From Ignavibacteriota bacterium (GTDB lineage Bacteria > Bacteroidota > Ignavibacteria > UBA10030 > SZUA-254), in contig JACQVI010000079.1 of the NCBI GenBank assembly GCA_016209795.1, forward strand, positions 421 through 64,420: 64,000 nucleotides of DNA, in the 5' to 3' direction. Positions 141 through 48,697 of the stretch are shown here, one piece after another (position 1 is the stretch's first letter; each line of letters begins with the position of its first letter). A program made the translations under genes and the position numbers. The notes beneath the pieces were generated by a model. The model saw only the letters and a program-made list of their open reading frames with translations, searched no databases and was not told the DNA's origin.

Positions 141-635
141 ATGGAAATCTACATTGTACGGCACGCAGTCGCAGTCCCCCGTGGGACAGAAGGATATCCA
201 AATGATGATCGACCCCTTACAGAAGAGGGTATTCAAAAAATGAAGGCTACAGCGAGAGGGATTGCTGAAATCATTGGAAAAGTCGATGTGATCATTAGCA
301 GTCCACTCATCCGGGCACACGACACAGCGAAAATCGTTGCCAAGGCACTGAAGTACAAAAGTAAAATTGACCTGAGCAAAGAATTCCTTCCCGGGAATTC
401 TCAAAATAGTGTTCTCGACTTCCTAGTAAAATTCAAAAATAAGAAAAATATCATGCTTGTCGGTCATGAACCTGATGTAGGTGTGCTGGCTTCAACATTG
501 TTAGGTTCAAATAGACCTCTTATCGCAATGAAGAAAGGTGCAGTGTGTCGAATTGATGTGGCTGAACTGCCGCTTAAAGAACCGGGAAAACTCATTTGGC
601 ACCTCACGCCAAAACAACTGAGAGCGTTGGCATAA
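141..635 (+). CDS. SixA-like phosphohistidine phosphatase (histidine phosphatase superfamily)
   Basis: The N-terminal IVRHAVA (RHG-type catalytic motif) and overall similarity to E. coli SixA are read directly from the ORF translation. Length is 164 aa. Confidence 0.7.
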   Translation: MEIYIVRHAVAVPRGTEGYPNDDRPLTEEGIQKMKATARGIAEIIGKVDVIISSPLIRAHDTAKIVAKALKYKSKIDLSKEFLPGNSQNSVLDFLVKFKNKKNIMLVGHEPDVGVLASTLLGSNRPLIAMKKGAVCRIDVAELPLKEPGKLIWHLTPKQLRALA

Positions 636-679
636 GAAAAATAATGAGAAATTCTTTTTGCAGACTTTAAGGATGCACA

Positions 680-1888
680 ATGGTAAGCAACAGTGAAATT
701 ATTCGTAAAGCTTCAGAGTATGTTTTTACTCTGTTCAAAGAAAACAAATCCGATTGTTCTGTGTACCACAACTACAATCATACGATAGAAACCGTTGCGG
801 CATGTGAAGAGATTGGGGATGAATCGAACTTAAGTAAATCGGAACAGGAGATTGTCGCAGTCGCTGCATGGTTCCACGACACCGGCTATACGGAGGATTG
901 TGAGAATCATGAAGAGAAGAGCGTCGAGATTGCCACGCGCTTTTTACAGCAGAATAATTACCCGCAGGAAAAGATTGCTCAGGTAGCAAGCTGTATCAGA
1001 GCAACGAAAGTCCCACAGGACCCGAAGAATCTCTTGGAAGAAGTAATCTGCGATGCTGATATTCTCCATTTCGGAAAGAAAAAATTCTTCCAAAAGAGCG
1101 ATTTGATGCGGATGGAACTTGAGCGCAGAGCGGATCGACCGTTCTCAGATCTCGAATGGCTGCAGAAAAGTGTGGACTTCGTTACGCAGCATAATTTCCA
1201 TACACGCTACGCACAGTTAGACTTCAATAAACAACGAACCAAAAACCTTATCAAACTCCAGGAGCTTTTGCGTGAAGCCCAAAGCGATCACGAAGAAACG
1301 CTTTCTGATCGAAAACTCAAAGAAGAAAAGTTTACAGGCAAGCTTGAAAAAGAGAAGATTCCAGTGCGCGGTATTGAAACGATGTTTCGACTCACTTCCG
1401 GCAACCACATCGACCTCAGCTCCATTGCAGACCACAAAGCCAACATGATGATCAGCAGCAATTCTCTCATTTTAACACTTGTCGTGACTCTATTTGGACG
1501 AGACATTATCAGCAACACTAATTCAATCCTCATTATTCCGATTTTGATCTTACTTATCGTCTGCGTAACGACAATTATCTTTGCAATCCTTGCAACGAGA
1601 CCGAAGATCACCGAAGGTATATTTACGAAGGAGGATATTGAACAAAAACGTGCTAACCTTCTTTTCTTTGGGAACTTCTACAATATGAGGCTTGAGGATT
1701 ACGAATGGGGCGTTAAAGAAATGATGAACGATCGGGAGTACCTGTATGGCAACATGATAAGAGATATTTACTTCTTAGGAAAGGTACTGGCACGTAAGTA
1801 TCGCTATCTCAGGATCTGCTACAACGTCTTCATGTACGGTCTGATTGTTGCTGTCATTGCGTTTGCAGTCGCCTTCCTAATTCGTTAA
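680..1888 (+). CDS. HD-domain phosphohydrolase fused to a C-terminal two-TM domain resembling the Pycsar effector (DUF5706/PycTM) family
   Basis: The HD motifs are H..H (YHNYNHT), HD (WFHDTGY) and D (CDADILHFG). A central coiled/charged linker follows. The C-terminal ~150 aa holds two strongly hydrophobic helices (LILTLVVTLFG, IIPILILLIVCVTTIIFAIL; C-terminal GLIVAVIAFAVAFLI). The Pycsar-effector family assignment is from memory of family architecture, not a search. Confidence 0.6.
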   Translation: MVSNSEIIRKASEYVFTLFKENKSDCSVYHNYNHTIETVAACEEIGDESNLSKSEQEIVAVAAWFHDTGYTEDCENHEEKSVEIATRFLQQNNYPQEKIAQVASCIRATKVPQDPKNLLEEVICDADILHFGKKKFFQKSDLMRMELERRADRPFSDLEWLQKSVDFVTQHNFHTRYAQLDFNKQRTKNLIKLQELLREAQSDHEETLSDRKLKEEKFTGKLEKEKIPVRGIETMFRLTSGNHIDLSSIADHKANMMISSNSLILTLVVTLFGRDIISNTNSILIIPILILLIVCVTTIIFAILATRPKITEGIFTKEDIEQKRANLLFFGNFYNMRLEDYEWGVKEMMNDREYLYGNMIRDIYFLGKVLARKYRYLRICYNVFMYGLIVAVIAFAVAFLIR

Positions 1889-1948
1889 TAATTTCTCTTA
1901 TCGTTCCTGCAGAAACCTTTTCCAGCGTACAGACTTCTTGATCTTCCA

Positions 1949-2599
1949 CTACTCGAGTGGAGGAACAAGCCTGAGAAGAGGACTCAAGCTTACATACTTG
2001 TAGTGCACTGTCCCAAGGTGTTCGTAATCGATTGTTCCCTCTTTCACTTCCTCCCAATCAATAACAGACTTTAGATCCTGAATAGCTTGAGATCGAAGAT
2101 AATTCTCTGAGAGCAAGACGTATTCGTTTCCCTCTATGTTATTTTTCAGAAGCCGGTGAGCAAGAATAACATCGCTACCAAGGAGTTTCATGAAGTTTCT
2201 CACGGTGATCGTGCTGACGGTTCCATAGTGACAAATCAGCTTCAATGTAAGCCGAACAACCGAATCACATGCAGCACAATTGCATGTTCTTGTTTTATCG
2301 ATCACTTTCAGAAGATGATGGAACTTAAGAAACATCGTCTTTGATTGTTTGGCAACTTCTGGTAGAGATGGAGCACTCCCTATCTTATAAAATAGAACAG
2401 CATCTCCTTCGATCTCGGACACTGAAAGCCCAAGCTCATTTGATTCGAGAATAGCTTCCAGTAATTTCGATATTATCCCTTGACTGTGAGCGAGCTCGGT
2501 TTCATTCAAGAATTTCGTGAACCCACTAATGTCCGGGATGAAAATCAAAGCGGTATACGTACCAGTGGCTTGGCTTGGATGTGTGATTGTGGTCTCCAT
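1949..2599 (-). CDS. class III nucleotidyl cyclase homologue (DUF2652-type)
   Basis: The internal Met start (METTITHP...) gives ~216 aa. The track ORF extends further upstream but would collide with the divergent gene at 2685. Cyclase-like blocks: ALIFIPDISGFTKF (compare FxDIxGFT metal-binding Asp), EIEGDAVLF (second Asp), ICHYGTVSTITV and GSDVILAHRLLK (compare GdtVNlAsRlE). Confidence 0.55.
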   Translation of the reverse strand: METTITHPSQATGTYTALIFIPDISGFTKFLNETELAHSQGIISKLLEAILESNELGLSVSEIEGDAVLFYKIGSAPSLPEVAKQSKTMFLKFHHLLKVIDKTRTCNCAACDSVVRLTLKLICHYGTVSTITVRNFMKLLGSDVILAHRLLKNNIEGNEYVLLSENYLRSQAIQDLKSVIDWEEVKEGTIDYEHLGTVHYKYVSLSPLLRLVPPLE

Positions 2600-2684
2600 A
2601 TTGATATTTAGCGGAAAATTTCTTAATATAGCATGATTCCTTCGTCCCCTTCGGTAATCCAATAATACTGATTTTTTCATCAAA

Positions 2685-3182
2685 ATGAAAACACTATTGT
2701 TAGTACGGCATGCAAAATCGAGCTGGAAAAACCCAGAGCTTTCTGATCGTGAGCGACCCCTCAACAATCGAGGGAAAAGAGATGCCCCGTTTATGGGAAA
2801 ACTACTCTCGGAACGAGGCGTGAAACCCGATTTGCTCATTACCAGTCCAACAAACAGAGCAATGACCACCGCACGTTATGTGGCTCATGAACTTCAGTAT
2901 CGAATCTCTGAGATCGTCACTGATGAATCACTCTATGGACAAACGATGGATCACATTCTCCATGTTATCCAGGGTTTTGAAAATTCAATAAACACGGTAA
3001 TGATCATTGGACACAATCCAGAAATCACTCTGTGTGCAAATTACATCACAGCGAATACCATTGAAAATATCCCAACCTGTGGCATCGTCTGTGTGGACTT
3101 TTCTATTGAACTTTGGAACGAGATAGCAAGAGGAAACGGTGCGCTTCGGTACTTTGAATATCCTAAAAAATACTTCAAATAG
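2685..3182 (+). CDS. SixA-like histidine phosphatase
   Basis: LLLVRHAKSSW with the RHA catalytic motif and histidine phosphatase fold signature. Length 165 aa. It ends 6 nt before ppk1. Confidence 0.7.
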   Translation: MKTLLLVRHAKSSWKNPELSDRERPLNNRGKRDAPFMGKLLSERGVKPDLLITSPTNRAMTTARYVAHELQYRISEIVTDESLYGQTMDHILHVIQGFENSINTVMIIGHNPEITLCANYITANTIENIPTCGIVCVDFSIELWNEIARGNGALRYFEYPKKYFK

Positions 3183-3188: not shown

Positions 3189-5279
3189 ATGAAGAGAAAA
3201 GATTATCAATACTTCAACCGAGAGTTGAGCTGGCTCTCGTTTAGCTACAGGGTTCTACAGGAAGCAAAAGATCCCCGTGTCCCTTTGTATGAGAGGATAA
3301 AATTCCTTGCAATCTTCTCATCGAACCTTGATGAGTTCTTCCGTGTACGCGTTGCTTCCCTCAAAGGACTCCTGAACCTTAAGAAAAAAGCCAAGAAGAA
3401 ATTGGAAATCCACCCCGCTGACTTACTTAAGGAAATCAAAAAAACAGTTCATCGGCAGCAAGAAGAATTTGGCTCCATTTTTCGGAAACAAATCCTTAGC
3501 AAATTGAATGAACATGGTATTTACCTGATCAACGAAACGGAGTTGAATGAAGAACAGCGAGAGTTTGCACAGAGCTATTTTAGACAGTGCATTGAACCAA
3601 TTATTGCACCAATGTTCATCTCCAAAAATAAAGAAGCGCCATTCCTCCAGAACCAATCTCTCTACCTTGCAACAAAGCTATTACCCAAACGCATTATAGG
3701 CAATCCTGATATTCAAGCTGACGAAGATGTAGAGTACCGATACGCTATTGTTGAAATACCAAGTCAACAGCTGCCACGCTTTGTCACTCTTCCAAAGATC
3801 GACGGCAACAATTACATTATGTTTCTGGATGATATTGTACGGCTATCTCTCCCTGAGATATTTCCGAACCATGAGATTGTAACTGCGTATGCAATCAAAT
3901 TAACTCGTGATGCGGAGTTGTATATCGAGGATGAATTTACAGGCGATTTGTTGGAGAAAATTAAGATCGGTTTAGGTAAACGTAAGACTGGAATAGCATC
4001 TCGTTTCCTCTATGATACAGCAATGCCAAAAAACTTTCTCAAGCTCCTGCGAAAGACATTTTCATTCACAAAAGGAGATCTCGTCCCGGGTGCACGTTAC
4101 CACAACTTTAATGATTTCTTCAGCTTCCCGGATCCAAAATTTCCAGGACTGATGTTTGAACCACTGCCTCCTCTCCGTCATCGAGTGTTGGATGCACATA
4201 ACTCGATGTTCGATGCGATCCGAGCACGAGACTTCATGTTGTATTACCCCTACCATTCGTTTGACCATGTCCTAGAGTTTTTACAGGAGGCAGCGGACGA
4301 TCCCAATGTTACATCTATGAAGATCACCCTGTACCGGGTTGCAAATAACTCACTCATTGTTAAGCCACTTACTGATGCTGCTCTTCGAGGGAAAGCGGTC
4401 ACAGCGTTCGTCGAAGTGAAAGCGCGCTTTGATGAGGAGTCAAACCTCCGTTGGGCTGAAGAGTTGGAGAAAGCAGGGGTAAAAGTTTTATATAGCCTGC
4501 CGGGTTTGAAAGTTCACGCTAAGATGTGCCTCGTTTCTCGGAATGAAGGAAACCATGTGTACAATTACCTTTACCTGAGCACGGGAAACTTCAACGAAAA
4601 AACAGCACAAGTATACTGCGATTTGGGATTTTTCACAGCGGATCAAAGATTAACAAAAGATGCCGAACGTATTTTCGATTTCATTTCTGGCAATGGCAAA
4701 AACGTTGATGGTGATCATGTGATCGTCGCTCCCTTTACAATGCGTGAAACTTTTCTCGATCTCATTGACAATGAGATCAACCATGCTCGCCACAATAACG
4801 GTGGATATATGATATTGAAAATGAACAGTCTCGAAGATCGAGAAATCATGGAAAAACTGTACGATGCGAACAACGTTGGTGTAAAAATATGGCTCATCGT
4901 GAGAGGAATCTGCTGCCTGGTTCCAGGTGTAGAAGGAATGAGTGAGAATATCAAAGTGGTAAGCATTGTTGATCGCTTCCTTGAACATGCCCGAATTTAT
5001 ATTTTTCACAACGGAGGTGATGAAAAATACTTTCTTGCTTCAGCAGATTTGATGACGCGGAATCTCAGTCGAAGAATTGAAGTGGCATTCCCTGTTTTCA
5101 ACGAAGCGCTGAAGCACGAACTGAAGAAAATCATCGATCTCCAGCTTCAGGATGATGTCAAAGCAAGAATCATCGATAAAAAACAGTCTAACAAGTATAA
5201 GCGATCCAAATCCGACAATTGCATTAGCTCTCAAGTTGCAACATATGAATATCTAAGAGAAACGACAGGAACTCCTTAA
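3189..5279 (+). CDS. ppk: polyphosphate kinase 1
   Basis: 696 aa with a typical PPK1 N-terminus (FNRELSWLSFSYRVLQEA, IKFLAIFSSNLDEFF) and PLD-like C-terminal domains. Confidence 0.9.
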   Translation: MKRKDYQYFNRELSWLSFSYRVLQEAKDPRVPLYERIKFLAIFSSNLDEFFRVRVASLKGLLNLKKKAKKKLEIHPADLLKEIKKTVHRQQEEFGSIFRKQILSKLNEHGIYLINETELNEEQREFAQSYFRQCIEPIIAPMFISKNKEAPFLQNQSLYLATKLLPKRIIGNPDIQADEDVEYRYAIVEIPSQQLPRFVTLPKIDGNNYIMFLDDIVRLSLPEIFPNHEIVTAYAIKLTRDAELYIEDEFTGDLLEKIKIGLGKRKTGIASRFLYDTAMPKNFLKLLRKTFSFTKGDLVPGARYHNFNDFFSFPDPKFPGLMFEPLPPLRHRVLDAHNSMFDAIRARDFMLYYPYHSFDHVLEFLQEAADDPNVTSMKITLYRVANNSLIVKPLTDAALRGKAVTAFVEVKARFDEESNLRWAEELEKAGVKVLYSLPGLKVHAKMCLVSRNEGNHVYNYLYLSTGNFNEKTAQVYCDLGFFTADQRLTKDAERIFDFISGNGKNVDGDHVIVAPFTMRETFLDLIDNEINHARHNNGGYMILKMNSLEDREIMEKLYDANNVGVKIWLIVRGICCLVPGVEGMSENIKVVSIVDRFLEHARIYIFHNGGDEKYFLASADLMTRNLSRRIEVAFPVFNEALKHELKKIIDLQLQDDVKARIIDKKQSNKYKRSKSDNCISSQVATYEYLRETTGTP

Positions 5280-5378: not shown

Positions 5379-7979
5379 TTAAAACATGAACCCACCCGTA
5401 ACATAAACGCCTGTTAATTCAATTGACCGAGCTACTGAAATGCTCAAAGTATATCTTGGCTTGTACACAGAAATCCATATTCCAGCACCTATAGAACTGT
5501 GCCAAAGACTCGAAGTTTCACCTCTTAATAATACTCTACCTGCTTCACCAAGAAATGATAACCCATACCATCCAGGAAAAAGAAATGAAAATCTTCCCAG
5601 ACGCAACCGTAGCTCTCCATTCCCAAAGAATGATGCATCGCCCGCAAAGCGTTGAAATGCATATCCACGAAGTGTTCGGGAGCCGCCCAAGAACGAAGAT
5701 TCGAAGAAAGGAAAATCACCAAAAGTTTTCTCTCCTGCAGTCCTTAATGCTAACGTTACAAAGGATTCCTGAGCTGGAGATAAATATGTTCTTACTTCAC
5801 CTCGAAGTTTTCCAAACTGCCGTTTGTTATTGAATATAACAGGAAAGTAAGAGCCTCGTACATCAACCATCAATCCAGCAGTAGTAGCCGATGATTGATT
5901 TCGAGTATCTAGATGAATTCCCCCATGTAAACCACCAAGCGTTCGTTTTCTGTCATCCTCTGACGGTTGCGTCAGTTTGAGAAAGCTACCATCATCCAGA
6001 TCGCTTTCAACATATTTGATTGTGCCACCAACTGTCATTGTGATTGTATAATTTGTATCGCGATGAATGAAAAAATCAATCGATGGCTCAAACGAAAATT
6101 GTTCTAGCCGAACATTATAAAACCCGTTCCGGTGGAGATCGGCATCGAAAGGAGTTTCATTCCCAAAACCAAAAAACTTTAAATGATCGAGTTGAGAAAC
6201 TCTTGCATGTAACAACACATGAGCACCTTTAATAAGTGAATTGAACTCTCCGGTGTAGTCGACTCTGAACTTCCGTGCTGTAGTAGCATACCCTCCAACA
6301 AGCTGCATACGAAACATATAGGGTGCGACACGGAAACCATAATCGTACAAGATAGGTCCTCCACCTAAGAATAAACCATCGTCTGGATTAAATCCATACC
6401 AAGGAGTAAACCGCCACAGATGCCCGTAGTCTCGTACAACTGGTTCATACCGAAGAGAATCATCCTTTGGTACCGGATATTTTTCGTGATCGAGTGATGA
6501 ACTTGATCCAAGCATGTATTTTGTATTTTCACCACTATCATAGAATTGAGTTTCAACCCGAGAATTGTCAATAAATTCATCCTGACCTTCACCACCAATG
6601 ACACGTAGAGTTATGCCCGGATCATAATCACCATCGACCACAACTTTATCATCTCCATCGAGTAGAGAGAGACGTATATCTTTTGTATACTTTTCATTGA
6701 AAGTTCTCACATAATACGGCTCTCCTTTTTTCTCGCCCGATTGCTTATCACGCCGATACAGTGCAATCATGATTTGTGTATCATTAAGGCAACGAATCTC
6801 AGCGTAATCATCTTTATTTGTGCCATGGAGGTCTGGAAATCGAGCTGAGACTCTGTAATATTCATCCGAAACTTCACTCAATTTTTCTTTCCTTGCTTTC
6901 AATGTTCGCTTCATTTCCTCACCTTCCATAGCATACATTTCAGGAGGAAAGCGATGAACAGAGTAGTCGATGACAGAATCAGTTATCTTCTCCAGGATAA
7001 AATTTGTCACAGAATCCCATGCTGGTTTATCGAGAGATACGAGTGAGCGTCGGTCGACATATCGCGCATCCCATGTAAGTTCTTCCATTCCTGGATATAC
7101 TCGACCGAAACCCTTAAGCTGAGGACGCATCATAGTAACAATCCATGGAACGAACCCCTGGAATCGAGTAAATGCCCAATCCCTATCCAGAGGTATAGGT
7201 TTCCAGAGCCACTTGCCATTCTGCTTGAAGCCTGCCCAGCGCCACTGGTCTTTGTGGCGATCCCAATCACCCAAATAAACATCCATCAATCGTGCTTTGA
7301 GATATTCTCTTGCATCCACCTGTTCATCAGGATCATTTTCTAAACGTTCATACAGTTTAAATGTTTTTATCACCTGATCAGCACCTGCATATCCAGGTTC
7401 CTCATCAGTTCCACCGCTCGGATTTTCTTGTAACGTTCCCAACATACCTCCAAATTCCTTTTGGAATGGTCCAAGCCGCTGATCGTTTGGTAGGACAACA
7501 AGCAATGGTTCTGGACTGAGGACGCCGACAGCGTTGAGAAAAGGTGCAACTATAATTGGGGCGAGAGGATTCGAGGAACTGATTTGATCTTGCAAAAAAT
7601 CTCCAGCGATAGATTCCTGCAATGCTTGTGGAAGAAAGCGCTTTGCATCTTTATCGGTTGATCGAAATTTGTATTCTTTCCCATCCTTACCACGAAACTT
7701 GAGCCCTTTTGTTTGTTTACGCCCAGCGCTTTCAAACGGAGTAAGACCACCCGCAAAGTGATCGAGATCGAGTATTTTCACTTTGATAGGTGTAGTCCAA
7801 AGATTGCGCCAATTCGATCCCGTAAAAATTGTCTGCATCCACGATGCACCATACCGTTCGCCAGGTATGATAAGCGTATCTTTTGTTGTGTTTGGATTCA
7901 ATGGGTTTTCCAGTTGAACGGAAAACACACTTGAATAAACTATCAAAGTAAATCCTATGAGATGAGTTAGATATTTCAT
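5379..7979 (-). CDS. Omp85/BamA-TamA family outer-membrane protein with a large uncharacterised N-terminal domain
   Basis: Signal peptide MKYLTHLIGFTLIVYSSVFSVQ. The C-terminal beta-barrel region carries a surface-antigen motif (GGSRTLRGYAFQRFAGDASFFGNGELRL). No clear POTRA repeats were recognised by eye. Confidence 0.5.
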   Translation of the reverse strand: MKYLTHLIGFTLIVYSSVFSVQLENPLNPNTTKDTLIIPGERYGASWMQTIFTGSNWRNLWTTPIKVKILDLDHFAGGLTPFESAGRKQTKGLKFRGKDGKEYKFRSTDKDAKRFLPQALQESIAGDFLQDQISSSNPLAPIIVAPFLNAVGVLSPEPLLVVLPNDQRLGPFQKEFGGMLGTLQENPSGGTDEEPGYAGADQVIKTFKLYERLENDPDEQVDAREYLKARLMDVYLGDWDRHKDQWRWAGFKQNGKWLWKPIPLDRDWAFTRFQGFVPWIVTMMRPQLKGFGRVYPGMEELTWDARYVDRRSLVSLDKPAWDSVTNFILEKITDSVIDYSVHRFPPEMYAMEGEEMKRTLKARKEKLSEVSDEYYRVSARFPDLHGTNKDDYAEIRCLNDTQIMIALYRRDKQSGEKKGEPYYVRTFNEKYTKDIRLSLLDGDDKVVVDGDYDPGITLRVIGGEGQDEFIDNSRVETQFYDSGENTKYMLGSSSSLDHEKYPVPKDDSLRYEPVVRDYGHLWRFTPWYGFNPDDGLFLGGGPILYDYGFRVAPYMFRMQLVGGYATTARKFRVDYTGEFNSLIKGAHVLLHARVSQLDHLKFFGFGNETPFDADLHRNGFYNVRLEQFSFEPSIDFFIHRDTNYTITMTVGGTIKYVESDLDDGSFLKLTQPSEDDRKRTLGGLHGGIHLDTRNQSSATTAGLMVDVRGSYFPVIFNNKRQFGKLRGEVRTYLSPAQESFVTLALRTAGEKTFGDFPFFESSFLGGSRTLRGYAFQRFAGDASFFGNGELRLRLGRFSFLFPGWYGLSFLGEAGRVLLRGETSSLWHSSIGAGIWISVYKPRYTLSISVARSIELTGVYVTGGFMF

Positions 7980-8011
7980 AAGATACTCTCCTTGGAATTG
8001 TTGTATGATTG

Positions 8012-9226
8012 TTATTGTCTAATCCACATTGAAAACACCTCTTCGCTCTTCTCACCTTCACTTCTCGGTTCAATAACCCCTAAGCGTACCCTCTGATCAA
8101 TTAAGATATCTATTCGCATAAAACCAGTATGTCTATGTGCAAAAAGTGTATGGTCTGCATGTGTTAGAGAAGGATCATGTTTAGAAGTCCCATATCCACT
8201 GACAAGAATCAAATATTCATCATCACTTTCAAGTACCTCAAGGGTGTGCTCATGACCTGCTGCATATACTAACGGAGGATGTTGAGAAAACACATTTTCA
8301 AATGCGTGTTTCATTTCCTCATATTTCGAACCTGACATATCTTGGTTTGATATTCCAAGATTTCGTATTAGAGGATACATGGAGCCTACTACGGGAAGAG
8401 GTATCAGCAACCATGATTCTATTTCACGAAGTGGAAAAATATGATCTCTCCAATCAAAAAATCCACTGTGTGTCCCATGGGATTCTAAGGGATGATGACC
8501 AACAACAATCACGTAGCGATTACCAGCGCTCTTAAGCACTTTTTCCAAAGAATCTGTAATAGCTTTTTTTGTTTCATTCTCATCATGAGTATTTGGATAT
8601 AATGGTTTTGGATTACCATGCAACCACCATTCAGTATCCAGAACTACCAACCTGACATGGGCACCAATATCTATTATATCCGGTCCTGGAGTTCCCCCTT
8701 GAGGTGACATGCGAATTCTTGTATTTTTCTTTGCTTCAAGAAATTCATTCTGTCGCTTTACACTTTCTAAACCATCATCACTCCACTCACCCCAGTCGTG
8801 ATTCCCAGGAATAAAAATTCCCGTTGCACCACTCTGTTCTACAACGGAAACTAACTCATTCAGTCGTCGCTCCATAAAGGGTCGTTCATCATGCGATTCT
8901 TTTGGCATCCCTTTAGGGTAGACGTTATCTCCTAAGAAAACTATAACACCTCTTTCGCGATACTTCGACGCTTCTCTCTCAAGTGCTGCAAGCACTGGTT
9001 CTTTCTTTTCCAATGACGGTTTACCAGCGTCTCCGATAAGAAACACACTCTGTACGATATCATCCTTGTCGACGTTTTCGACATGAGAAGTAGCAAGCTT
9101 GTCATTTACAAAAACACCTTGGATGCTACATGAATTAAGAAATAGAAGAGATGCTAAAAAAGTGAAAAGAAAGATCACACGATGTCTATGTTCAAACTGA
9201 TGTAAAGGCATTAAAGTTTTTGTCAC
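8012..9226 (-). CDS. secreted calcineurin-like metallophosphoesterase
   Basis: Signal peptide present. Metallophosphatase motifs are GDAG, GDNVY, GNHDW, GHHP and GHEH. Confidence 0.75.
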   Translation of the reverse strand: MTKTLMPLHQFEHRHRVIFLFTFLASLLFLNSCSIQGVFVNDKLATSHVENVDKDDIVQSVFLIGDAGKPSLEKKEPVLAALEREASKYRERGVIVFLGDNVYPKGMPKESHDERPFMERRLNELVSVVEQSGATGIFIPGNHDWGEWSDDGLESVKRQNEFLEAKKNTRIRMSPQGGTPGPDIIDIGAHVRLVVLDTEWWLHGNPKPLYPNTHDENETKKAITDSLEKVLKSAGNRYVIVVGHHPLESHGTHSGFFDWRDHIFPLREIESWLLIPLPVVGSMYPLIRNLGISNQDMSGSKYEEMKHAFENVFSQHPPLVYAAGHEHTLEVLESDDEYLILVSGYGTSKHDPSLTHADHTLFAHRHTGFMRIDILIDQRVRLGVIEPRSEGEKSEEVFSMWIRQ

Positions 9227-9265
9227 AATGTTGGGAAACGATGTTATTCTTTCTGTTATCTATAC

Positions 9266-10126
9266 TTATTTCTTCAAGGGATATTTTACTACAAAACCGT
9301 GTCTGTGTCCTTCATTACTGATCAACAATGTCCCATCGGGAGAAAATGCAATACCCTCGGGTTGCCTATGGATCTCTGTAGGCAACCTAACACATCCCAA
9401 TATTTCTCCGGTTGAGGAAAGTTCTAAAATCGATGATTCGTTTGAAGAAAGAAGAAAGAACGTTCCAGTCATTGGATTGCGAGTAATACCCGTTGGCTGA
9501 AATTTTTTAATTCCAAATTTGTCTCGTAACTCTCTAAGCAACAAAACAAACCTTGGTTTTTTTTCAAGCTTTAAGTTCTTCAAGGAAAACGAATAGACAG
9601 CCCTTGCATTACCGAAACCTTTGCCTGGATATCCTTTACATGCTAAAAGAAGAGACTGCGAATCAGGATCAAAACACAATCCCTCAACTTCATATCGTGC
9701 TGAAAGTCCTGTTTCAAACAATTCAAACTTCACATGACTATTGTTTTCGCCCTCTGTAAATCGGTAGATTTTCCCGTCACTTGAAACAAGAAAAAACTGA
9801 TCCACGGCGACTGCAATGTCTTCAAAATCATCCTGGTTGCGTTTTTTCCCCAGCGAAAAATATTTTTCAATGGATCCAGTATGAAGATCAACCTGATAAA
9901 CGACTCCCAATTCATCATTATGTGCAAACAGTCGTTCTTCATCAATCACTACGATACCGGAAATCTCCCTCAATTCTTTAGGTAATTCGAGCACCACAGG
10001 TTTTTTATTCCAAAGATCGTACGATGACAATGAGGAAGAAGACAAGATTGCGGGTTGTTCATCCCTAACACAGCCACAAAAAAATATAACATAGGCTAAT
10101 GATTTTAACAATGAGATGAACTTCAT
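9266..10126 (-). CDS. lipoprotein with SdiA-regulated/phytase-like beta-propeller features
   Basis: Lipobox (IFFCGC). Repeated EGIAF/EGLCF-type blades. The family call is by resemblance only. Confidence 0.4.
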   Translation of the reverse strand: MKFISLLKSLAYVIFFCGCVRDEQPAILSSSSLSSYDLWNKKPVVLELPKELREISGIVVIDEERLFAHNDELGVVYQVDLHTGSIEKYFSLGKKRNQDDFEDIAVAVDQFFLVSSDGKIYRFTEGENNSHVKFELFETGLSARYEVEGLCFDPDSQSLLLACKGYPGKGFGNARAVYSFSLKNLKLEKKPRFVLLLRELRDKFGIKKFQPTGITRNPMTGTFFLLSSNESSILELSSTGEILGCVRLPTEIHRQPEGIAFSPDGTLLISNEGHRHGFVVKYPLKK

Positions 10127-10366
10127 GTAAGGTTATATTTTTTTAGCTACTGAACTTCTGCATTCATAAGGTACCCCCGAATAATCTGGGTACATTATAT
10201 GGAAAAAAATCCTAACAAAAAAGGAAATAATAATGAAGGAGTGAAACCCGGGTATTTCTTTTACTACTGAGCAATAAACAGAAAACACAAAAATCAATGT
10301 TTTTTGGACATTTTTGATGGGATGGTGAAATGTAAGACGACCTTGAAACTGTTATAGATTTCACGT

Positions 10367-10573
10367 ATGTTGAAATTAACCAAAAGTCAGTTTAATCTGT
10401 TAGCAGATGCGGCTAGTGAAGCGAGTGCCATTGTCTTTGGCGCATTACTCGTGAGTGGCGTTTTCTCTCAAGAGCCAGTAAGAGGGCATATCATTGTCAT
10501 CGGTATTATTCTTTACATTCTCTGTGTGAGTTTGGCATTATTTTTCAAAAAGAAAGGAAACTCAGATGACTAA
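10367..10573 (+). CDS. small two-TM membrane protein (hypothetical)
   Basis: 68-aa ORF with two hydrophobic helices. No homology recognised. Confidence 0.25.
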   Translation: MLKLTKSQFNLLADAASEASAIVFGALLVSGVFSQEPVRGHIIVIGIILYILCVSLALFFKKKGNSDD

Positions 10574-11056
10574 CGTTGTGATTATCAGTGCACTTGTAGT
10601 CTCATTTTTTGCTATCATAGCACTTTGGACGCGGGTTGCTCTTGTGCAAACTGTGACTGTCTGCACGTGTGACCTGATAGTCGAACGAAGGGCGCTGATC
10701 AAGCGTTCTTTCCTCCGCTCCCCTACCATGCCACACCTGCGGAGCGCATGCTTGCTGTACATTTTCTTAATCATTGTTTAACTGTTCTTGGAGGAGTTAT
10801 GAAACCACTGTATTCAACCGAGAGACGTGACACGGAGTTACCATACTCGCATACTGAGAAGTGCGGTTGGTTACAAGATTGGCTTTGAGCGCACGACCCA
10901 TCTTGCCTTCTCCAGGAACTTCATGGAAGTTCTACTTCAACGTTTATTTTCAGTAGCTTTCTCTAAACCGCATTCACCCCCAATCGAAATCAATCCACCA
11001 ACTATCAATATGCACCACCGAATTCACCAATCCCAACGACCAGAAAGGAGTTTTGT

Positions 11057-12390
11057 ATGAAAACAACAAATCTGTTTTTCATGCTTTTGCTGCTGAGCAT
11101 TATTAGCCTTGCTCAGGTACCGCAAATCATAACTCACCAAGGGTTTCTCACGCGTGCCAATGGTGAGCCGTACGATACCACAATTGCGATGACGTTCCGC
11201 TTGTTTACTGACCCGACTGGCGGAAGCCAAGTCAGCACAGACCAGACGTTCTCAAGCGTGACAGTAACCCGTGGTGTCTTTAACGTATCACTTTCTCTTA
11301 GCGGCGTTGCGTTCGATAAACAATACTGGCTTGAGGTTGTAGCAGGCGGACAAACGCTTAGCCCGCGCCGACTGTTGCTGCCGTCATTGAAAGCCTCAAG
11401 GGTGGAATAACGGCGAAGTTCGGCGATCTGTACGGAACCGCAATCGGCACCGCGCAACATGAAGTTACCAAACGGTATGACGTGCATCTTCCACTGCGTG
11501 ACACGCCCATCGGAAATCTTGTTACCGATGCATTCCGTGCAAAGACCGGAACGGATCTTGCCATCACTGCGCTTGGATTGATTTCGGAAAAAATATATAA
11601 AGGTCCCATTACGGGTGCGGATGTCTTTCGTGCAATGAGTTACGGGTTCGACGAAGCAACGGGGCTTGGCTTCCAACTCGCGACGCTTGACATTCTCGGT
11701 TCGGAATTGCTGAAGGGTCTCGAGATCGGACTCTCCCAGATCGAGGTGAGCGACGACTTCTTCCTGCAGGTTTCCGGGGCACGCTTCATCTACGATCCGG
11801 CTCAGCCAGTCGGTCGGCGAGTCAATGTGAAGTCGATTCGGCTCGAGAACGGAAAACGGTTCTCGCTCACCGACACCTACAGCGTCACGGTGAACACGGG
11901 CATCGTCGTACTCCTCGGCAGGCTCGGCATCGCAGTTGAAAACATCCGCGTGCTTCCGGACTTTGAGTATACGGTCATGCGTGATCACATTGTTGCGCTC
12001 GGGAGGATCAACTACCAATCGCAGGGTCGGCTGCGCGAACAGCCGAGGCGTCCAACAAAGGGGATGAACGTTTCTCTCAGATACGATGAGGGACAATCAA
12101 GAGAAGTGTTCGTGGAGAATTACCCAAATCCGTTCAATCCAACAACGAATTTCAGTTTTCGAGTTTCGGATTTCGGCTTTGTCAGCCTTAAAGTCTACGA
12201 TGTGCTGGGACGAGAAGTAGCAACGATTGTCAATGAGGAATTACAACCGGGTGAGTACACCAGAACGTGGGATGCGATCGGGTTGCCGAGCGGAGTGTCC
12301 TCCAAAGGCGGATACGCCTCTGGCGTATATATCTATCGGCTAATGGCTGGCGGTACGATTGAGACAAAGAAAGCCATTATAATGAGATAA
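11057..12390 (+). pseudogene. fragmented T9SS-sorted 5'-nucleotidase-like gene (signal peptide fragment, then 5'-nucleotidase C-terminal domain plus Por/T9SS sorting domain)
   Basis: ORF 11057-11410 (signal peptide, frame 2) and ORF 11482-12390 (frame 1, GTG-initiated) overlap in different frames around 11360-11410. The downstream part matches the 5'-nucleotidase C-domain ([18 protein letters not shown]..., [12 protein letters not shown]) and ends with a T9SS C-terminal sorting domain ([28 protein letters not shown]...GVYIYRL). The N-terminal metallophosphatase domain is absent. Confidence 0.4.
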
Positions 12391-12526
12391 TATCATCATA
12401 GGGAGAAGCCTTGCAACTCTCTCCGTTTTGTGGTATATTTTCAGTGCAAATCCCGCTTCATGAGCGGGATTGTTGTATTTATCAAAGGATTTACACTGAT
12501 CTAGCACTTGAAATAGCTACATCTCA

Positions 12527-14323
12527 ATGGATCATATCAGAAACTTCTGCATCATCGCTCACATCGATCACGGCAAATCGACCATTGCTGATCGACTGCT
12601 TGAGCGTACTGGCACAATCACCGAGCGTGAGATGAAGTTCAATCAGGTGCTCGATGACATGGAGCTTGAGCAAGAAAGAGGTATTACAATCAAGCTCCAC
12701 GCAATCCAGATGAAGTATCATGCGAAGGACGGTAAAACATACACGTTGAATCTCATCGATACGCCCGGTCATGTGGATTTCTCATACGAAGTTTCTCGTT
12801 CTCTTGCTGCCTGTGAAGGTGCTATTCTTGTTGTCGATGCATCTCAGGGAGTTGAAGCACAGACAATTAGCAATCTCTATTTAGCTATCGATGCAGGATT
12901 GGAGATCATTCCGGTCATCAATAAAATTGATTTGCCGAGTGCAATGATTGACACGGTAAAACACCAGATTATGGATTTGATTGGATGTAGAGAGCAAGAG
13001 ATTATCCTCGCAAGCGCCAAGATGAAGATTGGTGTCGATGAGGTGCTTGAAGCCGTTGTGAATCGTATCCCACCTCCAACGGGTGACCCGAGAGCGCCGC
13101 TGAAAGCCCTGATCTTTGATTCAATTTTTGATGGCTATCGTGGTTCGGTTGTCTATATTCGCGTCTTTGAAGGCACACTCAAAGAGAAAGACAAAATAAA
13201 GTTCTTTGCCACAAACAAAATCTTCGATGCAGAAGAAATAGGCATCCTCGAAATGCAGCGAGTACGAACTGGAATGTTATCAGCAGGTGATGTTGGGTAT
13301 CTCATTGCTGGTGCTAAGGATGTCCACGATACAAAAGTCGGTGACACCATCACTCACGCCGAACGACCTGCTGATGCCCCACTGCCTGGGTATAAAGAAG
13401 CTAAACCAATGGTGTTCGCTGGATTGTATCCGGTGAATGCCGATAACTTTACGGAGTTGAGAGATTCGCTTGAGAAACTGCGGATGAACGACGCCTCCCT
13501 GACATTTGAACCTGAAACTTCTGTCGCACTTGGATTTGGCTTTCGAGCGGGGTTTCTTGGGTTGCTTCATATGGAGATTGTTCAGGAGCGACTTGAGCGT
13601 GAGTACAAGCAGGAACTCATCACTACCGTCCCGAACGTAGAATATCGTGTTCTTACGCGTAGCAGCAACGTTGTCATGGTTGATAACCCTGCGTTGATGC
13701 CCCCACTTGGCGAGATCGAGTCTATCAAGGAGCCGTACGTGCGAGCACAAATCATCACACCATCAGAGTACATCGGCAATATCATGAAGTTGTGCACGGA
13801 ACGAAGAGGACTCTACAACAATACCACGTACCTTGACCCTACACGTGCCGATTTGCGGTATGAACTACCTTTGTCAGAGATCATTTTTGATTTCTATGAT
13901 AAGCTGAAGTCGACGTCCCGTGGGTATGCTTCGTTGGATTACGAATTTCTGGAATACCGAGATTCTGACTTAGTAAAGCTCGATATTTTACTGAATGGTG
14001 AGCCTGTCGATGCACTCTCGACGATTGTCCATCGAGAGAAAGCGTACGAATGGGGTAAGAAACTGTGCGCAAGATTACGCAAACTTATTCCTAGGCAGAT
14101 GTTTGAAGTTGTCATTCAGGCAGCAATCGGAAGTAAAGTCATCGCACGTGATTCTATCGCCCCACTGAGAAAAAATGTGTTGGCAAAATGCTATGGTGGC
14201 GACATCACCCGAAAACGAAAACTCCTCGAGAAACAAAAGGAAGGAAAGAAGCGTATGAAACAAGTTGGAAGAGTCGAGATACCGCAAGAGGCATTTCTTG
14301 CAGTGCTCGCCATGGAAGATTAA
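12527..14323 (+). CDS. lepA: elongation factor 4 (LepA)
   Basis: G-domain motif AHIDHGKST and full-length similarity. Length 598 aa. Confidence 0.95.
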
Positions 14324-35570: not shown

Positions 35571-37205
35571 ATGATGACACAGACATATATTCCGAGAGCG
35601 AACGGATGGAGGCAAACGTTACTGATATTTTGGTTTGTTTCTATCTTTCTTGAGTCCGAAGGAGCCCGTTCTCAGGACATCATCGTTGAAGAACACCCGA
35701 ATCATTACATACTTCTTGTAGATGCTTCCGGTTCAATGCTGTCCACAAAGGCGAAGGCTAATGCGCTTCGAAATATTTTGTTTGATACACTAAGCAATCG
35801 ACTTTTTCGTTTGGGTTTCGGCGAGAATATACCGCCTCTTGATCTCAATCGAGATTTCATCACCATGCATACTTTCGGAATCGTGGAGAAGGACTCTTCG
35901 CCAGCATATTTGCGACTCAAGGGTTATGATTTCCAGAAAGACTTTGTTCATACCATCATCTTGAGGGAGAGGTTAGTATCACCCCAGTACTTAACAGCAC
36001 GATTGTATCCGAATCGTTTTTTCGAATTGACAGTTCTTGGCTGGGCGAAGCAGTTAGGATTATCGGCATCCCGACCAGATTCACTAAATACGACCGCAAA
36101 CCGTACGTTCCTCATATTCATTCACGATGCAGAAACCAACGAAAGCTCTCTTGCTGAGGAGCTAATAATGGCCGAACGATGGTCCAACTCAGCAAGTTTT
36201 GAGCAAGCAAAGAGAATTGTCCGTGATATTGACCGCGACTACGGGTTTTATGATGCACAGGGGGAAAGACGGTGGGCTTGGCAACTGAGGTATCATTTGC
36301 CCAATCAACCAAGTCAAACCATATATCTCGAAGCGTACGAAGTTATTGCAGCTAATCTCCTGAAACTTCAAGGCGAGTCAAGATCAATACGTCCCTTCGC
36401 CGATATGAGGGTCAGATGGGTCAACGAGAAAAAAACGAATTCAGAAGGGATATTGAGCTACTCATTTGAAGAAACTTTTTTGACTTGGATTAACTCATTT
36501 CATCCGACCGAGATGACTGTTCACTTCAATTTCACGCGCAATACGACCTCATCTGTACAGCCATTTATCCCCTCAGCTGAGACTCCCTTTAAGTATTCTG
36601 ACACTCTCTCCTGTGATACGAGGGAGGTTAATATCGCATTCCAGGTTCCACTGCATCAATTGGACGCGTTGCTGGGAACGAGAAATATGCAGTTCGTCGT
36701 TGACCATTCACTCACGTTGCCTAAGCCTTTCCGATGCACGATAGAGTTCTTCCTGTTCACGTTGTCCACTGCCACAATTTCAATACTGCTGTTGACCACC
36801 ATAATTTATACAATCTACTTCAGATTCTTCGCAACCCATGTATTTCTTGAACTCCCTGGACTTGTGAAACCAATTCGAATTCGACGGAATACAGTCCTGA
36901 CCCAGGCAATCACCATTGCACCACAAACAAACTTAGAAGTCTTCTCCGTGCTCTTACCTCCCCAATTGATACAGAGACTTTTCTACCGACATGCTTCGTT
37001 ACTTATAAAGACCACCAATCAAGGTCTCTGCAAATGGCAAGATGAGGGAAGCGATTCAACAGTGATTAGACTACCACATAATAAGAAGCGAGTTAATGCT
37101 CTCTGGACTAATCTACCAAGCGGGCCAACAGTTGTTGCTTTGCTTTTTCGGCAGGCCCATTCTGAGTCACAACTCCACGTCGAATATCCAAAAGGAACTA
37201 ATTGA
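35571..37205 (+). CDS. membrane-anchored vWA-like domain protein
   Basis: N-terminal signal/anchor. MIDAS-like YILLVDASGSM (DxSxS). One strong TM helix (FFLFTLSTATISILLLTTIIYTIYF) before a ~130-aa C-terminal tail. Confidence 0.45.
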   Translation: MMTQTYIPRANGWRQTLLIFWFVSIFLESEGARSQDIIVEEHPNHYILLVDASGSMLSTKAKANALRNILFDTLSNRLFRLGFGENIPPLDLNRDFITMHTFGIVEKDSSPAYLRLKGYDFQKDFVHTIILRERLVSPQYLTARLYPNRFFELTVLGWAKQLGLSASRPDSLNTTANRTFLIFIHDAETNESSLAEELIMAERWSNSASFEQAKRIVRDIDRDYGFYDAQGERRWAWQLRYHLPNQPSQTIYLEAYEVIAANLLKLQGESRSIRPFADMRVRWVNEKKTNSEGILSYSFEETFLTWINSFHPTEMTVHFNFTRNTTSSVQPFIPSAETPFKYSDTLSCDTREVNIAFQVPLHQLDALLGTRNMQFVVDHSLTLPKPFRCTIEFFLFTLSTATISILLLTTIIYTIYFRFFATHVFLELPGLVKPIRIRRNTVLTQAITIAPQTNLEVFSVLLPPQLIQRLFYRHASLLIKTTNQGLCKWQDEGSDSTVIRLPHNKKRVNALWTNLPSGPTVVALLFRQAHSESQLHVEYPKGTN

Positions 37206-37220
37206 CATTAGAGGGATTAT

Positions 37221-39278
37221 ATGCAGGAAGCCAATTCAGACAAAACGGAAAAGCAAAGGACAAACGAAATCTCCTACTATGTAGCGCTCGATTTGGGGTC
37301 TGAGTCAATGTCTGCTTACTTTGAAGAGAAGGACTATTCTAAGTTCGATATGGTGGACTTGCAAGCACATGCAAAGACCTTGCTCGGACAAGATCCTGAA
37401 TACCTGATGGAAGAAGTTGAGAATCTTCAGAAGAAAAGTCCACGCCTGAGAACACGGATATTCATTCGCGACAGGAAACAGCCTTCAAGCCTATCGCTCA
37501 ATCATGCAAAATTAGATTTCATCCATAAGAACGGAACGAAACTCCCTGGTTACGATGAATCGCTCTTTGGTCTTTTCGCTGCACCGAACACATGGGTACT
37601 TGGAGGAATGATGCCCAATCCTAAAATCCCATTCCAATATGGTGCCCAAGAAATCATCCCGGAAGTGGAACCACAAGGCGGTGGAATAAAGGTGAAGCAT
37701 AACCCCGAGGTACTGATACAGCATCTCACTGCGCAGATTGTGCGTAATCTTGTGCTGTTGTCTCCCGAATTGCAAAACGTCGACCCTTCAAGCATTGAGC
37801 TTTTGCTGACAGTTCCGAATGTATATAGCTTACCTCATGTGGAAAGCCTCTGCTCATTCCTGCAAACGAACAGTGGCGTGAAAACCGTAAGGGCAGTAAG
37901 CGAGTCAGATGCTGCTGTGTACTTCGTGCTTGACCTTCCTCGAAATACCGATCTCACGGAGGTCAGCGAATTCAAAGGCAGAATCAGGAACAGGAAGGAC
38001 AAGGATTACTTGAGAATTGTTTCTATTGACATTGGACGTGGCACTACCGACTTGAGTGCTATTGAAGTGAAGCCACCACTCAACTCTCAAAGCCCACAAA
38101 ATCTGGTACGCTTGGCAGTCGTTGGCAAGAGTGATGGAGGAAATCGACTGAGTTACATTTTAGCTGAATACTTCAACAAACAGTTTATACATTTTCGACC
38201 AAGGATCGAATCGACCCTGGGAAAGAGTGTGCGATTCTCATTCCTTGAAAAGGAGCCGACCATTCCGACACCTTGGTCCGAGGCCATAGTAGCCTTAGAA
38301 ACCCTGATAGAAAGAATCAAGCGTTCTATCACAGAAAAACATTATGTGGGTTTGCAATCTGACCAGACAATTACAAACAGAATTCTCTCCAAGATCTGTC
38401 AACTAACTGATCCGAATTGGCAAGACAATAACGCTGACAAGTTCCAGGCACTTTTGGATGAGCTAACTGACCAAGGTTTTCTATCTCTGCCAGATTATTT
38501 ACCGCGGGGACTGCGCAGATGGTGGTGGCAAATTTTTTACAAGTCAAATAGGCTGAAACAGATACAATGTGACCTATCTATTGCAATTGAGAAATATGTG
38601 CAAGAAAATGTCTCAGAACTTCTTTCGCAATTAGTTCAAATGTACGCGGCTCGAGATGCTCGCTATACTTCCAAGGTTAGGTCTGCAGGCAAGGACCTCT
38701 TCGATCATAGGTGCACATTCGTAGTTATCTTGGGACAAGCAGCTCAGCTCGCTCCTATCCGATCGGCGATTCGCAGTAAGTTGTCTGAATTTGACTTCCC
38801 ATGGGAAACGAACATGCTTTGCTTGGACGGTCCGATTGCCAAGGAGGCTTGTTGTAAGGGTGCAGTTAGCTACGCCCGTTCGAAAGCAAAACTGACCAAT
38901 GATGACGAACTGATGGGTACATTTGGTATGCTTTCCCGTGTCACTCCGTTTGGGTCTGAGCAAAGTTTCAAAATGTTCAACATGTCAGAAATAAATAGCG
39001 CTAGATCAAGCAGTCAGGTAAGTTTCCCCGCTAAGTCCGAGGCCCTTCTATTCTATTCGTCACGTTTGTATACCAACGGTGAATCGCCAGGCCTGTTTGA
39101 TGGCTATACGGCGATCATCAAGACATTTGAAGGCAGCGAGTTTACATTCAGATATGACCGGCCAAATCGGAAGATTTATGTGAACGATATTCTCGTGGAT
39201 AAGCTTGCAACATACGGAGACATTCAAGAGTCAATCTACTATAAGGTCTGGCCGGAAGTGTTAAAACCGATGCAGTAG
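37221..39278 (+). CDS. Hsp70/actin-fold (ASKHA) ATPase, cytoplasmic, divergent
   Basis: Phosphate-1-like VALDLGSESMSAYF, connect-1-like VSESDAAVYFVLD and phosphate-2-like IVSIDIGRGTTDLSAIEV. No TM segments. Confidence 0.55.
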   Translation: MQEANSDKTEKQRTNEISYYVALDLGSESMSAYFEEKDYSKFDMVDLQAHAKTLLGQDPEYLMEEVENLQKKSPRLRTRIFIRDRKQPSSLSLNHAKLDFIHKNGTKLPGYDESLFGLFAAPNTWVLGGMMPNPKIPFQYGAQEIIPEVEPQGGGIKVKHNPEVLIQHLTAQIVRNLVLLSPELQNVDPSSIELLLTVPNVYSLPHVESLCSFLQTNSGVKTVRAVSESDAAVYFVLDLPRNTDLTEVSEFKGRIRNRKDKDYLRIVSIDIGRGTTDLSAIEVKPPLNSQSPQNLVRLAVVGKSDGGNRLSYILAEYFNKQFIHFRPRIESTLGKSVRFSFLEKEPTIPTPWSEAIVALETLIERIKRSITEKHYVGLQSDQTITNRILSKICQLTDPNWQDNNADKFQALLDELTDQGFLSLPDYLPRGLRRWWWQIFYKSNRLKQIQCDLSIAIEKYVQENVSELLSQLVQMYAARDARYTSKVRSAGKDLFDHRCTFVVILGQAAQLAPIRSAIRSKLSEFDFPWETNMLCLDGPIAKEACCKGAVSYARSKAKLTNDDELMGTFGMLSRVTPFGSEQSFKMFNMSEINSARSSSQVSFPAKSEALLFYSSRLYTNGESPGLFDGYTAIIKTFEGSEFTFRYDRPNRKIYVNDILVDKLATYGDIQESIYYKVWPEVLKPMQ

Positions 39279-39294
39279 CAGAAAGGAGTTCGAG

Positions 39295-41220: not shown

Positions 41221-41252
41221 TAATAGTTTATTAGATTTAACAAGAACTGGGA

Positions 41253-48692: not shown

Positions 48693-48697
48693 GGGTC

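Follow-up and report, generated by a model that had tools for sequence, protein, structure and literature searches.

We analysed a 64,000-nt window of DNA from an Ignavibacteriota bacterium (contig JACQVI010000079.1), near the start of which five tightly spaced open reading frames (ORFs) encode SixA1, HD-PycTM, DUF2652, SixA2 and PPK1. SixA1 (141-635, plus strand) is followed after 44 nt on the same strand by HD-PycTM (680-1888), a 402-residue protein in which a cytoplasmic HD phosphohydrolase is fused to a membrane module of the PycTM type. DUF2652 (1949-2599, minus strand; 216 residues) is a short-form protein resembling class III cyclases. It runs tail-to-tail against HD-PycTM, with a 60-nt spacer between the convergent stop codons (1889-1948), and is divergent from SixA2 (2685-3182, plus strand), from which it is separated by an 85-nt intergenic region (2600-2684). 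SixA2 leads an operon with polyphosphate kinase 1, PPK1 (3189-5279, plus strand; 696 residues), the gap between the two genes being 6 nt. The initial annotation of this DNA had placed the first four of these ORFs correctly, and had also correctly described the cyclase-like and HD genes as convergent and non-operonic. It had further proposed that two SixA-like phosphatases bracket the pair. Both flanking proteins are indeed SixA-like; however, the bracket is asymmetric, because SixA2 heads the SixA2-PPK1 operon, which had been overlooked. The divergent layout of DUF2652 and SixA2-PPK1 is shared with the loci L164, L170, L001, L002 and L011 of our neighbourhood surveys.

SixA1 matched PF00300 and passed the cut-off of the SixA equivalog model TIGR00249 (89 versus 74.5 bits), as expected of a SixA-type phosphohistidine phosphatase. 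SixA2 also matched PF00300 (His_Phos_1), but its TIGR00249 score of 57 bits lies under the cut-off of 74.5, so we refer to it as SixA-like only. The two proteins are 29% identical. An orthologue of SixA1 occupies the same position in L164 and L168, and orthologues of SixA2 are found immediately 5' of PPK1 in many loci. PPK1 was assigned with TIGR03705 (792.5 bits versus a cut-off of 465.85) and four PP_kinase Pfam domains. Catalysis by PPK1 passes through a phosphohistidine intermediate, and a phosphohistidine phosphatase would therefore be a natural partner of this enzyme.

HD-PycTM matched PF01966 (HD, E = 3.8e-8) at residues 32-130 and PF18967 (PycTM, E = 4.3e-36) at residues 281-387. The PADLOC models of PycTM and of the CBASS "2TM effector" matched residues ~247-398, with PDLC02364 as the best hit (E = 7.6e-18). 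The earlier designation of this ORF as an HD protein with a two-transmembrane (TM) module was thus borne out: the H...HD...D site is intact and the C-terminal module does match the Pycsar-effector family. In the DNA, the HD catalytic domain corresponds to 773-1069 (residues 32-130), the linker helix of about 50 residues that joins it to the membrane module to 1205-1357 (residues 176-226), and the PycTM module, delimited by Pfam, PADLOC, conservation and the AlphaFold2 (AF2) model, to 1361-1885 (residues 228-402). Among 39 homologues, the HD metal motif is invariant at H30, D67 and D125 and conserved to at least 90% at H66. The AF2 model (predicted local distance difference test score, pLDDT, 85.7) orders the protein as an HD bundle, the continuous helix 176-226, a conserved cytosolic helix (RGIETMFR...ADxKA) leading into a TM hairpin (~258-306), a cytosolic insert of about 70 residues with an invariant NLLFFGNF, and a C-terminal TM helix (~376-401). 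Two of the membrane helices are strongly hydrophobic and one is weaker, giving two to three TM helices. Invariant polar residues line the cytosolic side of the module (R230, E233, T234, H243, D251, K253, N326, N332, D351, D362 and K373).

The nearest solved relatives of the HD domain were 2pq7, Escherichia coli YedJ (3gw7) and BH2835 (3dto) by sequence, and 2pjq, 2pq7, Bacillus subtilis YpgQ (5dqw) and 3dto by fold. YpgQ is a homodimeric Mn-dependent NTP/dNTP pyrophosphohydrolase (PMC8177086). The YpgQ/YedJ/BH2835 hydrolases gave the best sequence and fold matches to residues ~1-200 of HD-PycTM and share its H...HD...D site. However, they are soluble proteins of ~200 residues, whereas the HD domain of HD-PycTM is tethered by the long helix to a conserved membrane module. 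That module found no match among solved structures in the fold search. HD-PycTM is probably a YpgQ/YedJ-like, metal-dependent phosphohydrolase acting on nucleotides or polyphosphate, anchored in the inner membrane and probably dimeric; we infer that dimerisation would take place via the 176-226 helix. The family is very large, with more than 7,000 clusters at 90% identity and a nearly always identical architecture. Searching with the membrane module alone returned 1,734 clusters at 50% identity (E ≤ 1e-3), or 1,106 at E ≤ 1e-10, and the best 150 matches were mostly ~400 residues long, which corresponds to the HD-fused form. The shape of the HD-PycTM tree fits vertical descent.

The product of 1949-2599 matched PF10851 (DUF2652, E = 2.5e-42; 144 bits against a gathering cut-off of 22.1). 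It contains IFIPDISGFT (residues 19-28), EIEGDAV (62-68) and DVILAHRLL (143-151), the motifs from which it had been called a cyclase homologue, and the AF2 model (pLDDT 92.1) agrees with that call. A Foldseek search with the model retrieved class III cyclases with E-values of 5e-10 to 1e-8 and a probability of 1.00, including CyaC (1wc4, E = 4.9e-10). Guanylyl cyclases of eukaryotic and cyanobacterial origin, 3et6 and Cya2 (2w01) among them, were also matched, and the Pycsar cUMP synthase (7r65) ranked 49th. The fold search alone succeeded in this respect: the DUF2652 profile gave nothing meaningful by sequence against PDB chains, and hhalign against four PF00211 members returned the expected register with a probability of just 6.9%, which we did not use as proof. 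Of the four Pfam families that the initial annotation had named for the pair, PF10851, PF01966 and PF18967 matched, but PF00211 did not at E ≤ 0.1.

Among 38 homologues, D23 (PDISGFT), E62, G65-D66 (EGD), K120, H124, K138, G141 and H148 are invariant, and R149 and the cysteines C106, C108 and C111 of a CxCxxC motif are at least 90% conserved. D23 and D66 correspond to the metal aspartates, in a register that agrees with PF00211 members and with that given in passages of PMC4886424, and E62/K138 take the base-specifying positions. Of the two transition-state residues, the Arg is represented by Arg149, and the position of the catalytic Asn holds Ile145. Active cyclases lacking this Asn are cited in PMC4886424. 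The same paper (Ramakrishnan et al. 2016), in the passages that treat the family, assigns DUF2652 proteins by prediction to the class III cyclases and classes as guanylate-cyclase-like the Bacteroidetes members, with their D,D / E,K / H,R pattern; the window protein belongs to that family and shows that pattern. Those passages report no neighbourhood with HD-PycTM or PPK1. Relatives of the window protein are mostly ~365 residues long with a C-terminal SRPBCC/polyketide-cyclase-like domain, unlike the window protein, which is a short form devoid of this domain. Judged by the model, the fold of DUF2652 is that of class III cyclases, and the alignment shows its metal-binding aspartates to be conserved. 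The protein may be catalytically active as a class III-type cyclase; its specificity residues are guanylyl-cyclase-like, and it would supply an optional cyclic nucleoside monophosphate (cNMP) input in some lineages.

The CxCxxC motif forms a near-invariant insertion at residues 106-111 of DUF2652 (window 2267-2284, minus strand). Four zinc-finger ligands, C221/C223/C260/H263, are described for AnPycC, a clade D Pycsar cyclase (PMC11224242). A terminator-like match at 2267-2287 is spurious, because the Cys codons of CxCxxC are palindromic.

We surveyed the surroundings of HD-PycTM in 88 loci, comprising 80 metagenome loci with homologues at 41-54% identity, six contigs found by exact protein look-up and two Bacteroidota chromid loci. 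A SixA-like gene was found within 600 nt of HD-PycTM in 23 of the 88 loci, PPK1 within 3 kb in the same number (23/88) and an Omp85-like gene within 3 kb in 37. Where at least 8 kb were available on both flanks, the Omp85-like gene was present within 3 kb in 17 of 20 loci, and at least one of SixA, PPK1 and the Omp85-like gene was found in 32 of the 40 loci with at least 2.5 kb on both flanks. No DUF2652 gene was detected within 3 kb in the 88 loci, and only one (L094) within 10 kb. Counting recurrent neighbours by clustering and Pfam scans of the flanking genes gave a fusion of metallophosphatase and Omp85 of ~1,230 residues (23 loci), a ~794-residue protein with no Pfam match lying convergently downstream of HD-PycTM (20 loci), SixA-like proteins (19 loci), PPK1 (13 loci), an SdiA-regulated/phytase-like propeller (12 loci) and NUDIX proteins (3 loci); housekeeping genes such as Der and ParAB also recur. 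The initial annotation had treated the cyclase and the HD-TM protein as one functional unit, but it is the SixA-like, PPK1 and Omp85-like/metallophosphatase genes that recur beside HD-PycTM instead.

Several of these loci have operon-like arrangements with PPK1. In L081, HD-PycTM is followed by SixA and PPK1 with gaps of 12 and 63 nt. In L169, HD-PycTM and SixA overlap by 4 nt and are followed by PPK1 and then by convergent Omp85 genes, and in L167 PPK1 precedes HD-PycTM. L168, whose proteins are ~58-60% identical to those of the window, contains on a single strand two CHAD genes, the SixA1 orthologue, HD-PycTM, the SixA2 orthologue and PPK1. The CHAD-domain genes, of a family associated with polyphosphate granules, directly precede the SixA>HD-PycTM>SixA>PPK1 series in this locus (5477-10907). 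L168 has the window order minus DUF2652, and the window resembles a polyphosphate operon in which DUF2652 has been set in reverse. Alternatively, DUF2652 could be ancestral at the locus and lost in most relatives. The operon context of PPK1 and the CHAD genes upstream in L168 are reminiscent of bacterial polyphosphate clusters, in which ppk1 occurs with ppx and CHAD. In contrast to those clusters, the partners in the window are SixA-like phosphatases and HD-PycTM, and no ppx was identified beside ppk1.

The outer-membrane component has a counterpart in the window, where an Omp85-like outer-membrane protein (5379-7979, minus strand; PF01103) and a calcineurin-like metallophosphatase (8012-9226, minus strand; PF00149) follow PPK1. 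They are separate genes at 5379-9226 here and a single ~1,230-residue protein in Bacteroidota, for example in L011 (2211-5963) and L165 (1916-5596); the window metallophosphatase corresponds to the split-off N-terminal half of that protein. This fusion, similar to a type-Vd-like surface phosphoesterase, accompanies HD-PycTM more constantly than any other neighbour.

On this evidence, we consider it somewhat more probable than not (about 0.55) that the locus is a housekeeping polyphosphate/phosphate locus and not a defence system, in which HD-PycTM works with PPK1 and the SixA-like phosphatases and DUF2652 is an accessory, lineage-specific input. The conserved unit would be SixA1>HD-PycTM>[ ]>SixA2>PPK1, beside genes for outer-membrane or secreted phosphoesterases. 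In the window lineage, DUF2652 occupies the gap in reverse, tail-to-tail with HD-PycTM and head-to-head with sixA2-ppk1. HD-PycTM may act jointly with PPK1 and the SixA-like phosphatases, and its membrane module, possibly still regulated by a ligand, may correspond in a housekeeping setting to the small TM effectors that Pycsar and CBASS use. The SixA genes, which had been suggested to regulate a cNMP module, are better explained as members of a polyphosphate operon. The biochemical activities, the substrate and any cNMP coupling at the locus are what we infer from these comparisons.

Several observations weigh against this proposal. PPK1 or SixA adjoins HD-PycTM in just about a quarter to a third of the loci, and the commonest neighbour is an Omp85-like protein without an assigned role; the polyphosphate link is thus one of gene neighbourhood. 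The set of 80 metagenome loci is also biased to relatives at 41-54% identity. The PycTM module keeps many polar residues without variation on its cytosolic side, which points to a ligand-binding role and not just an anchoring one, and the recurrence of cyclases of two families as neighbours could mean that cNMP control is more central than we have credited.

The second survey was anchored on DUF2652 and used one genome per species, giving 80 loci that were searched with hidden Markov models (HMMs) built from the homologue sets; 70 of them have at least 1.3 kb of downstream sequence. HD-PycTM lay directly downstream in convergent orientation in 17 of the 80, with spacers of -20 to 163 nt. These 17 are the Calditrichia loci L001 and L002, a Chitinophagales metagenome-assembled genome (L011) and 14 species of Hymenobacteraceae from the genera Hymenobacter, Rufibacter, Nibribacter and Adhaeribacter; the pair is kept in 14 of the 15 species of this family that were sampled. 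The window order is also kept in the two closest relatives of the pair, L164 (69% and 63% identity) and L170 (DUF2652, 62%). Neighbour-joining groups the adjacent DUF2652 genes into a single subfamily, which includes the window and L164, the Hymenobacteraceae and the Calditrichia. Of its 21 members, 19 are tail-to-tail with HD-PycTM with a spacer of at most 170 nt, the exceptions being L013 and L037, and the subfamily spans the three phyla Ignavibacteriota, Calditrichota and Bacteroidota. The adjacency of this subfamily and HD-PycTM is real and far past chance. Co-occurrence of the two families, which the initial annotation had proposed to examine across genomes, thus holds for one DUF2652 subfamily, but not when counted from HD-PycTM. 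We also considered whether DUF2652 is tied to sixA2-ppk1 instead of HD-PycTM. This was rejected, since the Hymenobacteraceae keep DUF2652 beside HD-PycTM while PPK1 is 7 kb away.

Outside this subfamily, DUF2652 genes have PAS histidine kinases and response regulators of the LuxR/NarL type as neighbours, or occur in unrelated surroundings. The loci flanked by kinases or regulators include L014, L016, L021, L022, L027, L028, L044, L045, L047 and L054, which suggests a general signalling role for the DUF2652 family.

The conserved pairing raises the possibility that DUF2652 and HD-PycTM are a dedicated housekeeping cNMP pair. In such a pair, DUF2652 would make a cNMP, probably cGMP-like, whose binding to the PycTM module on its cytosolic face would gate a membrane conductance or the HD activity; the HD domain would degrade the signal, so that the response limits itself, and the polyphosphate genes would be regulated neighbours. 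The arrangement within the subfamily, its retention in Hymenobacteraceae, the conserved catalytic residues of DUF2652 and the homology of the module to cNMP-activated PycTM effectors are all consistent with this idea. Co-directional genes in Gemmatimonadota point the same way: L067 has the order PPK1>Omp85-like>PycTM>DUF2652, in which the PycTM protein lacks the HD domain and has a disordered N-terminus, and L036 has DUF2652 followed by an HD-only gene. So do non-orthologous cyclases of PF00211, which occur as a membrane protein on the same strand after HD-PycTM in Fulvitalea axinellae (L165), convergent to HD-PycTM in L156, and 5' of PPK1 in L100, where the operon is convergent to HD-PycTM. 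However, these three cases in ~88 loci are not clearly above chance for cyclase-rich genomes, and any detectable cyclase lies near HD-PycTM in just 2-3 of 88 loci. From the DUF2652 side, no HD-PycTM homologue occurs within 10 kb in 60 of the 80 loci, and the adjacent convergent arrangement is missing from 63. Moreover, the convergent genes are not co-transcribed, HD-PycTM has no canonical cNMP-binding domain, and its nearest HD relatives are NTP pyrophosphohydrolases and not phosphodiesterases. We regard a dedicated pair as a tentative alternative that is unlikely on balance. An optional cNMP input to the housekeeping polyphosphate locus is plausible, because the DUF2652 subfamily and the PF00211 cyclases are found in the same locus. 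In L167, a channel gene with Ion_trans and cNMP_binding domains (11301-12566) lies 3 kb downstream of HD-PycTM; this is a single case and may be a coincidence.

At the other extreme, DUF2652 might be an unrelated signalling gene that landed at a permissive site 3' of HD-PycTM, with no functional link between the two. The regulatory or unrelated contexts of the other DUF2652 subfamilies would fit such a view, as would the close relatives at 58-60% identity that lack DUF2652 and the variable 3' side of HD-PycTM, which is occupied by the 794-residue protein, SixA-PPK1, a 235-residue protein or a cyclase. Yet the convergent adjacency is kept in three phyla within one subfamily, far past chance for a single-copy partner, and survives rearrangement of the remaining neighbourhood. 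The absence of any link is therefore improbable in our judgement.

The initial annotation had suggested a cyclic-nucleotide signalling or abortive-infection-type module, with an effector part of the Pycsar/CBASS-like kind. In a Pycsar- or Pucsar-like abortive-infection system, a phage would activate the cyclase, the cNMP would open the PycTM pore and the cell would die. The resemblance to Pycsar lies in the C-terminal ~175 residues of HD-PycTM, which are homologous to PycTM by PF18967 and the PADLOC models, and in the class III fold that DUF2652 shares with PycC, 7r65 being among its Foldseek matches; the CBASS effector HMMs match the same module. According to the abstract of a recent preprint, Pucsar is a cGMP-producing offshoot of Pycsar with TIR or TM effectors (bioRxiv 10.64898/2026.08.12.744502). 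The combination of a purine (cGMP) cyclase with TM effectors recalls the window pair, given the guanylyl-cyclase-like specificity residues of Bacteroidota-type DUF2652; compared at this level, the two differ in that the window context is housekeeping and not defence. Unlike Pycsar effectors, HD-PycTM carries an extra N-terminal HD hydrolase. The window cyclase is of the DUF2652 family, for which PADLOC gave no match at E ≤ 0.1, including none to PycC (the SixA genes were likewise unmatched). In the window and 19 related loci, cyclase and effector are convergent and do not form one co-directional operon, and HD-PycTM genes are mostly without any cyclase partner. In contrast to CBASS, no CD-NTase was found among the neighbours scanned.

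Signs of mobility or defence were also absent from what we searched. Neither HD-PycTM nor DUF2652 has relatives in 2.9 million viral contigs, and 72,556 plasmid records gave only seven matches to HD-PycTM and two to DUF2652, each of them on a large, non-mobilizable replicon. The window neighbours scanned include no defence, integrase or transposase genes. The G+C (GC) content is flat at 0.39-0.47 across the first 10 kb of the window, and the synteny of the HD-PycTM locus with ppk1 is core, being conserved within and across genera and across phyla, unlike the patchy occurrence in defence islands. A recent horizontal insertion was rejected in view of the uniform GC content and the absence of mobile genes. 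We take the window locus to be chromosomal and vertically inherited in its Ignavibacteriae bacterium, and we consider abortive infection highly improbable as its function. The initial interpretation is partly supported as a whole, its domain assignments all being correct and its abortive-infection reading unsupported.

The name "Pycsar system effector family protein", given by RefSeq and its annotation pipeline PGAP to the HD-PycTM homologues in L165 (Fulvitalea axinellae pFA2) and L166 (Chondrinema litorale), speaks at face value for a defence role. The neighbours of these two homologues, however, are a metallophosphoesterase gene and other non-defence genes, and the name is likely an over-transfer of a family name.

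A bolder, speculative reading, which we think doubtful, would derive the small TM effectors of Pycsar and CBASS from HD-PycTM as their housekeeping prototype. It would be a nucleotide-gated inner-membrane protein coupling a cGMP-like signal, from DUF2652 or PF00211 cyclases, to polyphosphate/phosphate homeostasis together with PPK1, SixA and CHAD. The HD domain would serve as a built-in terminator of the signal, and defence systems would have recruited the module by dropping this "off switch".

The relationship of DUF2652 to cyclases was already known from the passages of PMC4886424 mentioned above, and the combination of HD and PF18967 is visible in databases. In the literature covered, which included the Pucsar preprint at the level of its abstract, we found no paper that describes HD-PycTM, places it in a polyphosphate context or links it to a DUF2652 subfamily. 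A very large uncharacterised family that is automatically named as a Pycsar effector has a conserved context in polyphosphate/phosphate metabolism and not in defence, which corrects a misleading name and calls for caution in censuses of defence systems. For polyphosphate biology in Bacteroidota, Ignavibacteriota and Calditrichota, HD-PycTM is a candidate membrane-bound partner of PPK1 that has not been studied. With it, the idea that a defence effector module has a housekeeping relative also becomes testable, and one subfamily of the uncharacterised DUF2652 cyclases gains a concrete genomic partner.

The two spacers of the locus were scanned for promoters and terminators and folded as RNA, and neither was better than shuffled controls. 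No terminator-like hairpin was found in the 1889-1948 spacer (fold z-scores of +1.08 and +0.33), and the promoter-like hexamers on both strands of 2600-2684 occur at chance frequency only. Beyond the Omp85-like and metallophosphatase genes, the phosphoesterase set of the window continues with a phytase-like/SdiA-regulated beta-propeller (9266-10126, minus strand; PF13449 and PF06977) and a 5'-nucleotidase C-terminal domain with a type IX secretion system (T9SS) sorting tail (11482-12390, plus strand; PF02872 and PF18962); LepA and signal peptidases come after this set. The 11482-12390 ORF holds the C-terminal domain only, with no N-terminal metallophosphatase half upstream, and the gene may be truncated or rearranged. 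At 10100-12400 the GC content rises locally to 0.50-0.55, and an antisense ORF of 320 residues is present.

Farther along the window, four large ORFs of 544, 685, 641 and 1,737 residues lie in a row at 35571-46466 (plus strand) and have no Pfam match at E ≤ 1e-5. A thiamine pyrophosphate (TPP) riboswitch (RF00059, 74 bits) was found at 51077-51175 (minus strand), directly 5' of the genes at 46446-51043 (minus strand), which encode a TonB-dependent receptor, a thiamin pyrophosphokinase and an SSF symporter. The riboswitch and these three genes constitute a riboswitch-controlled thiamine salvage operon.

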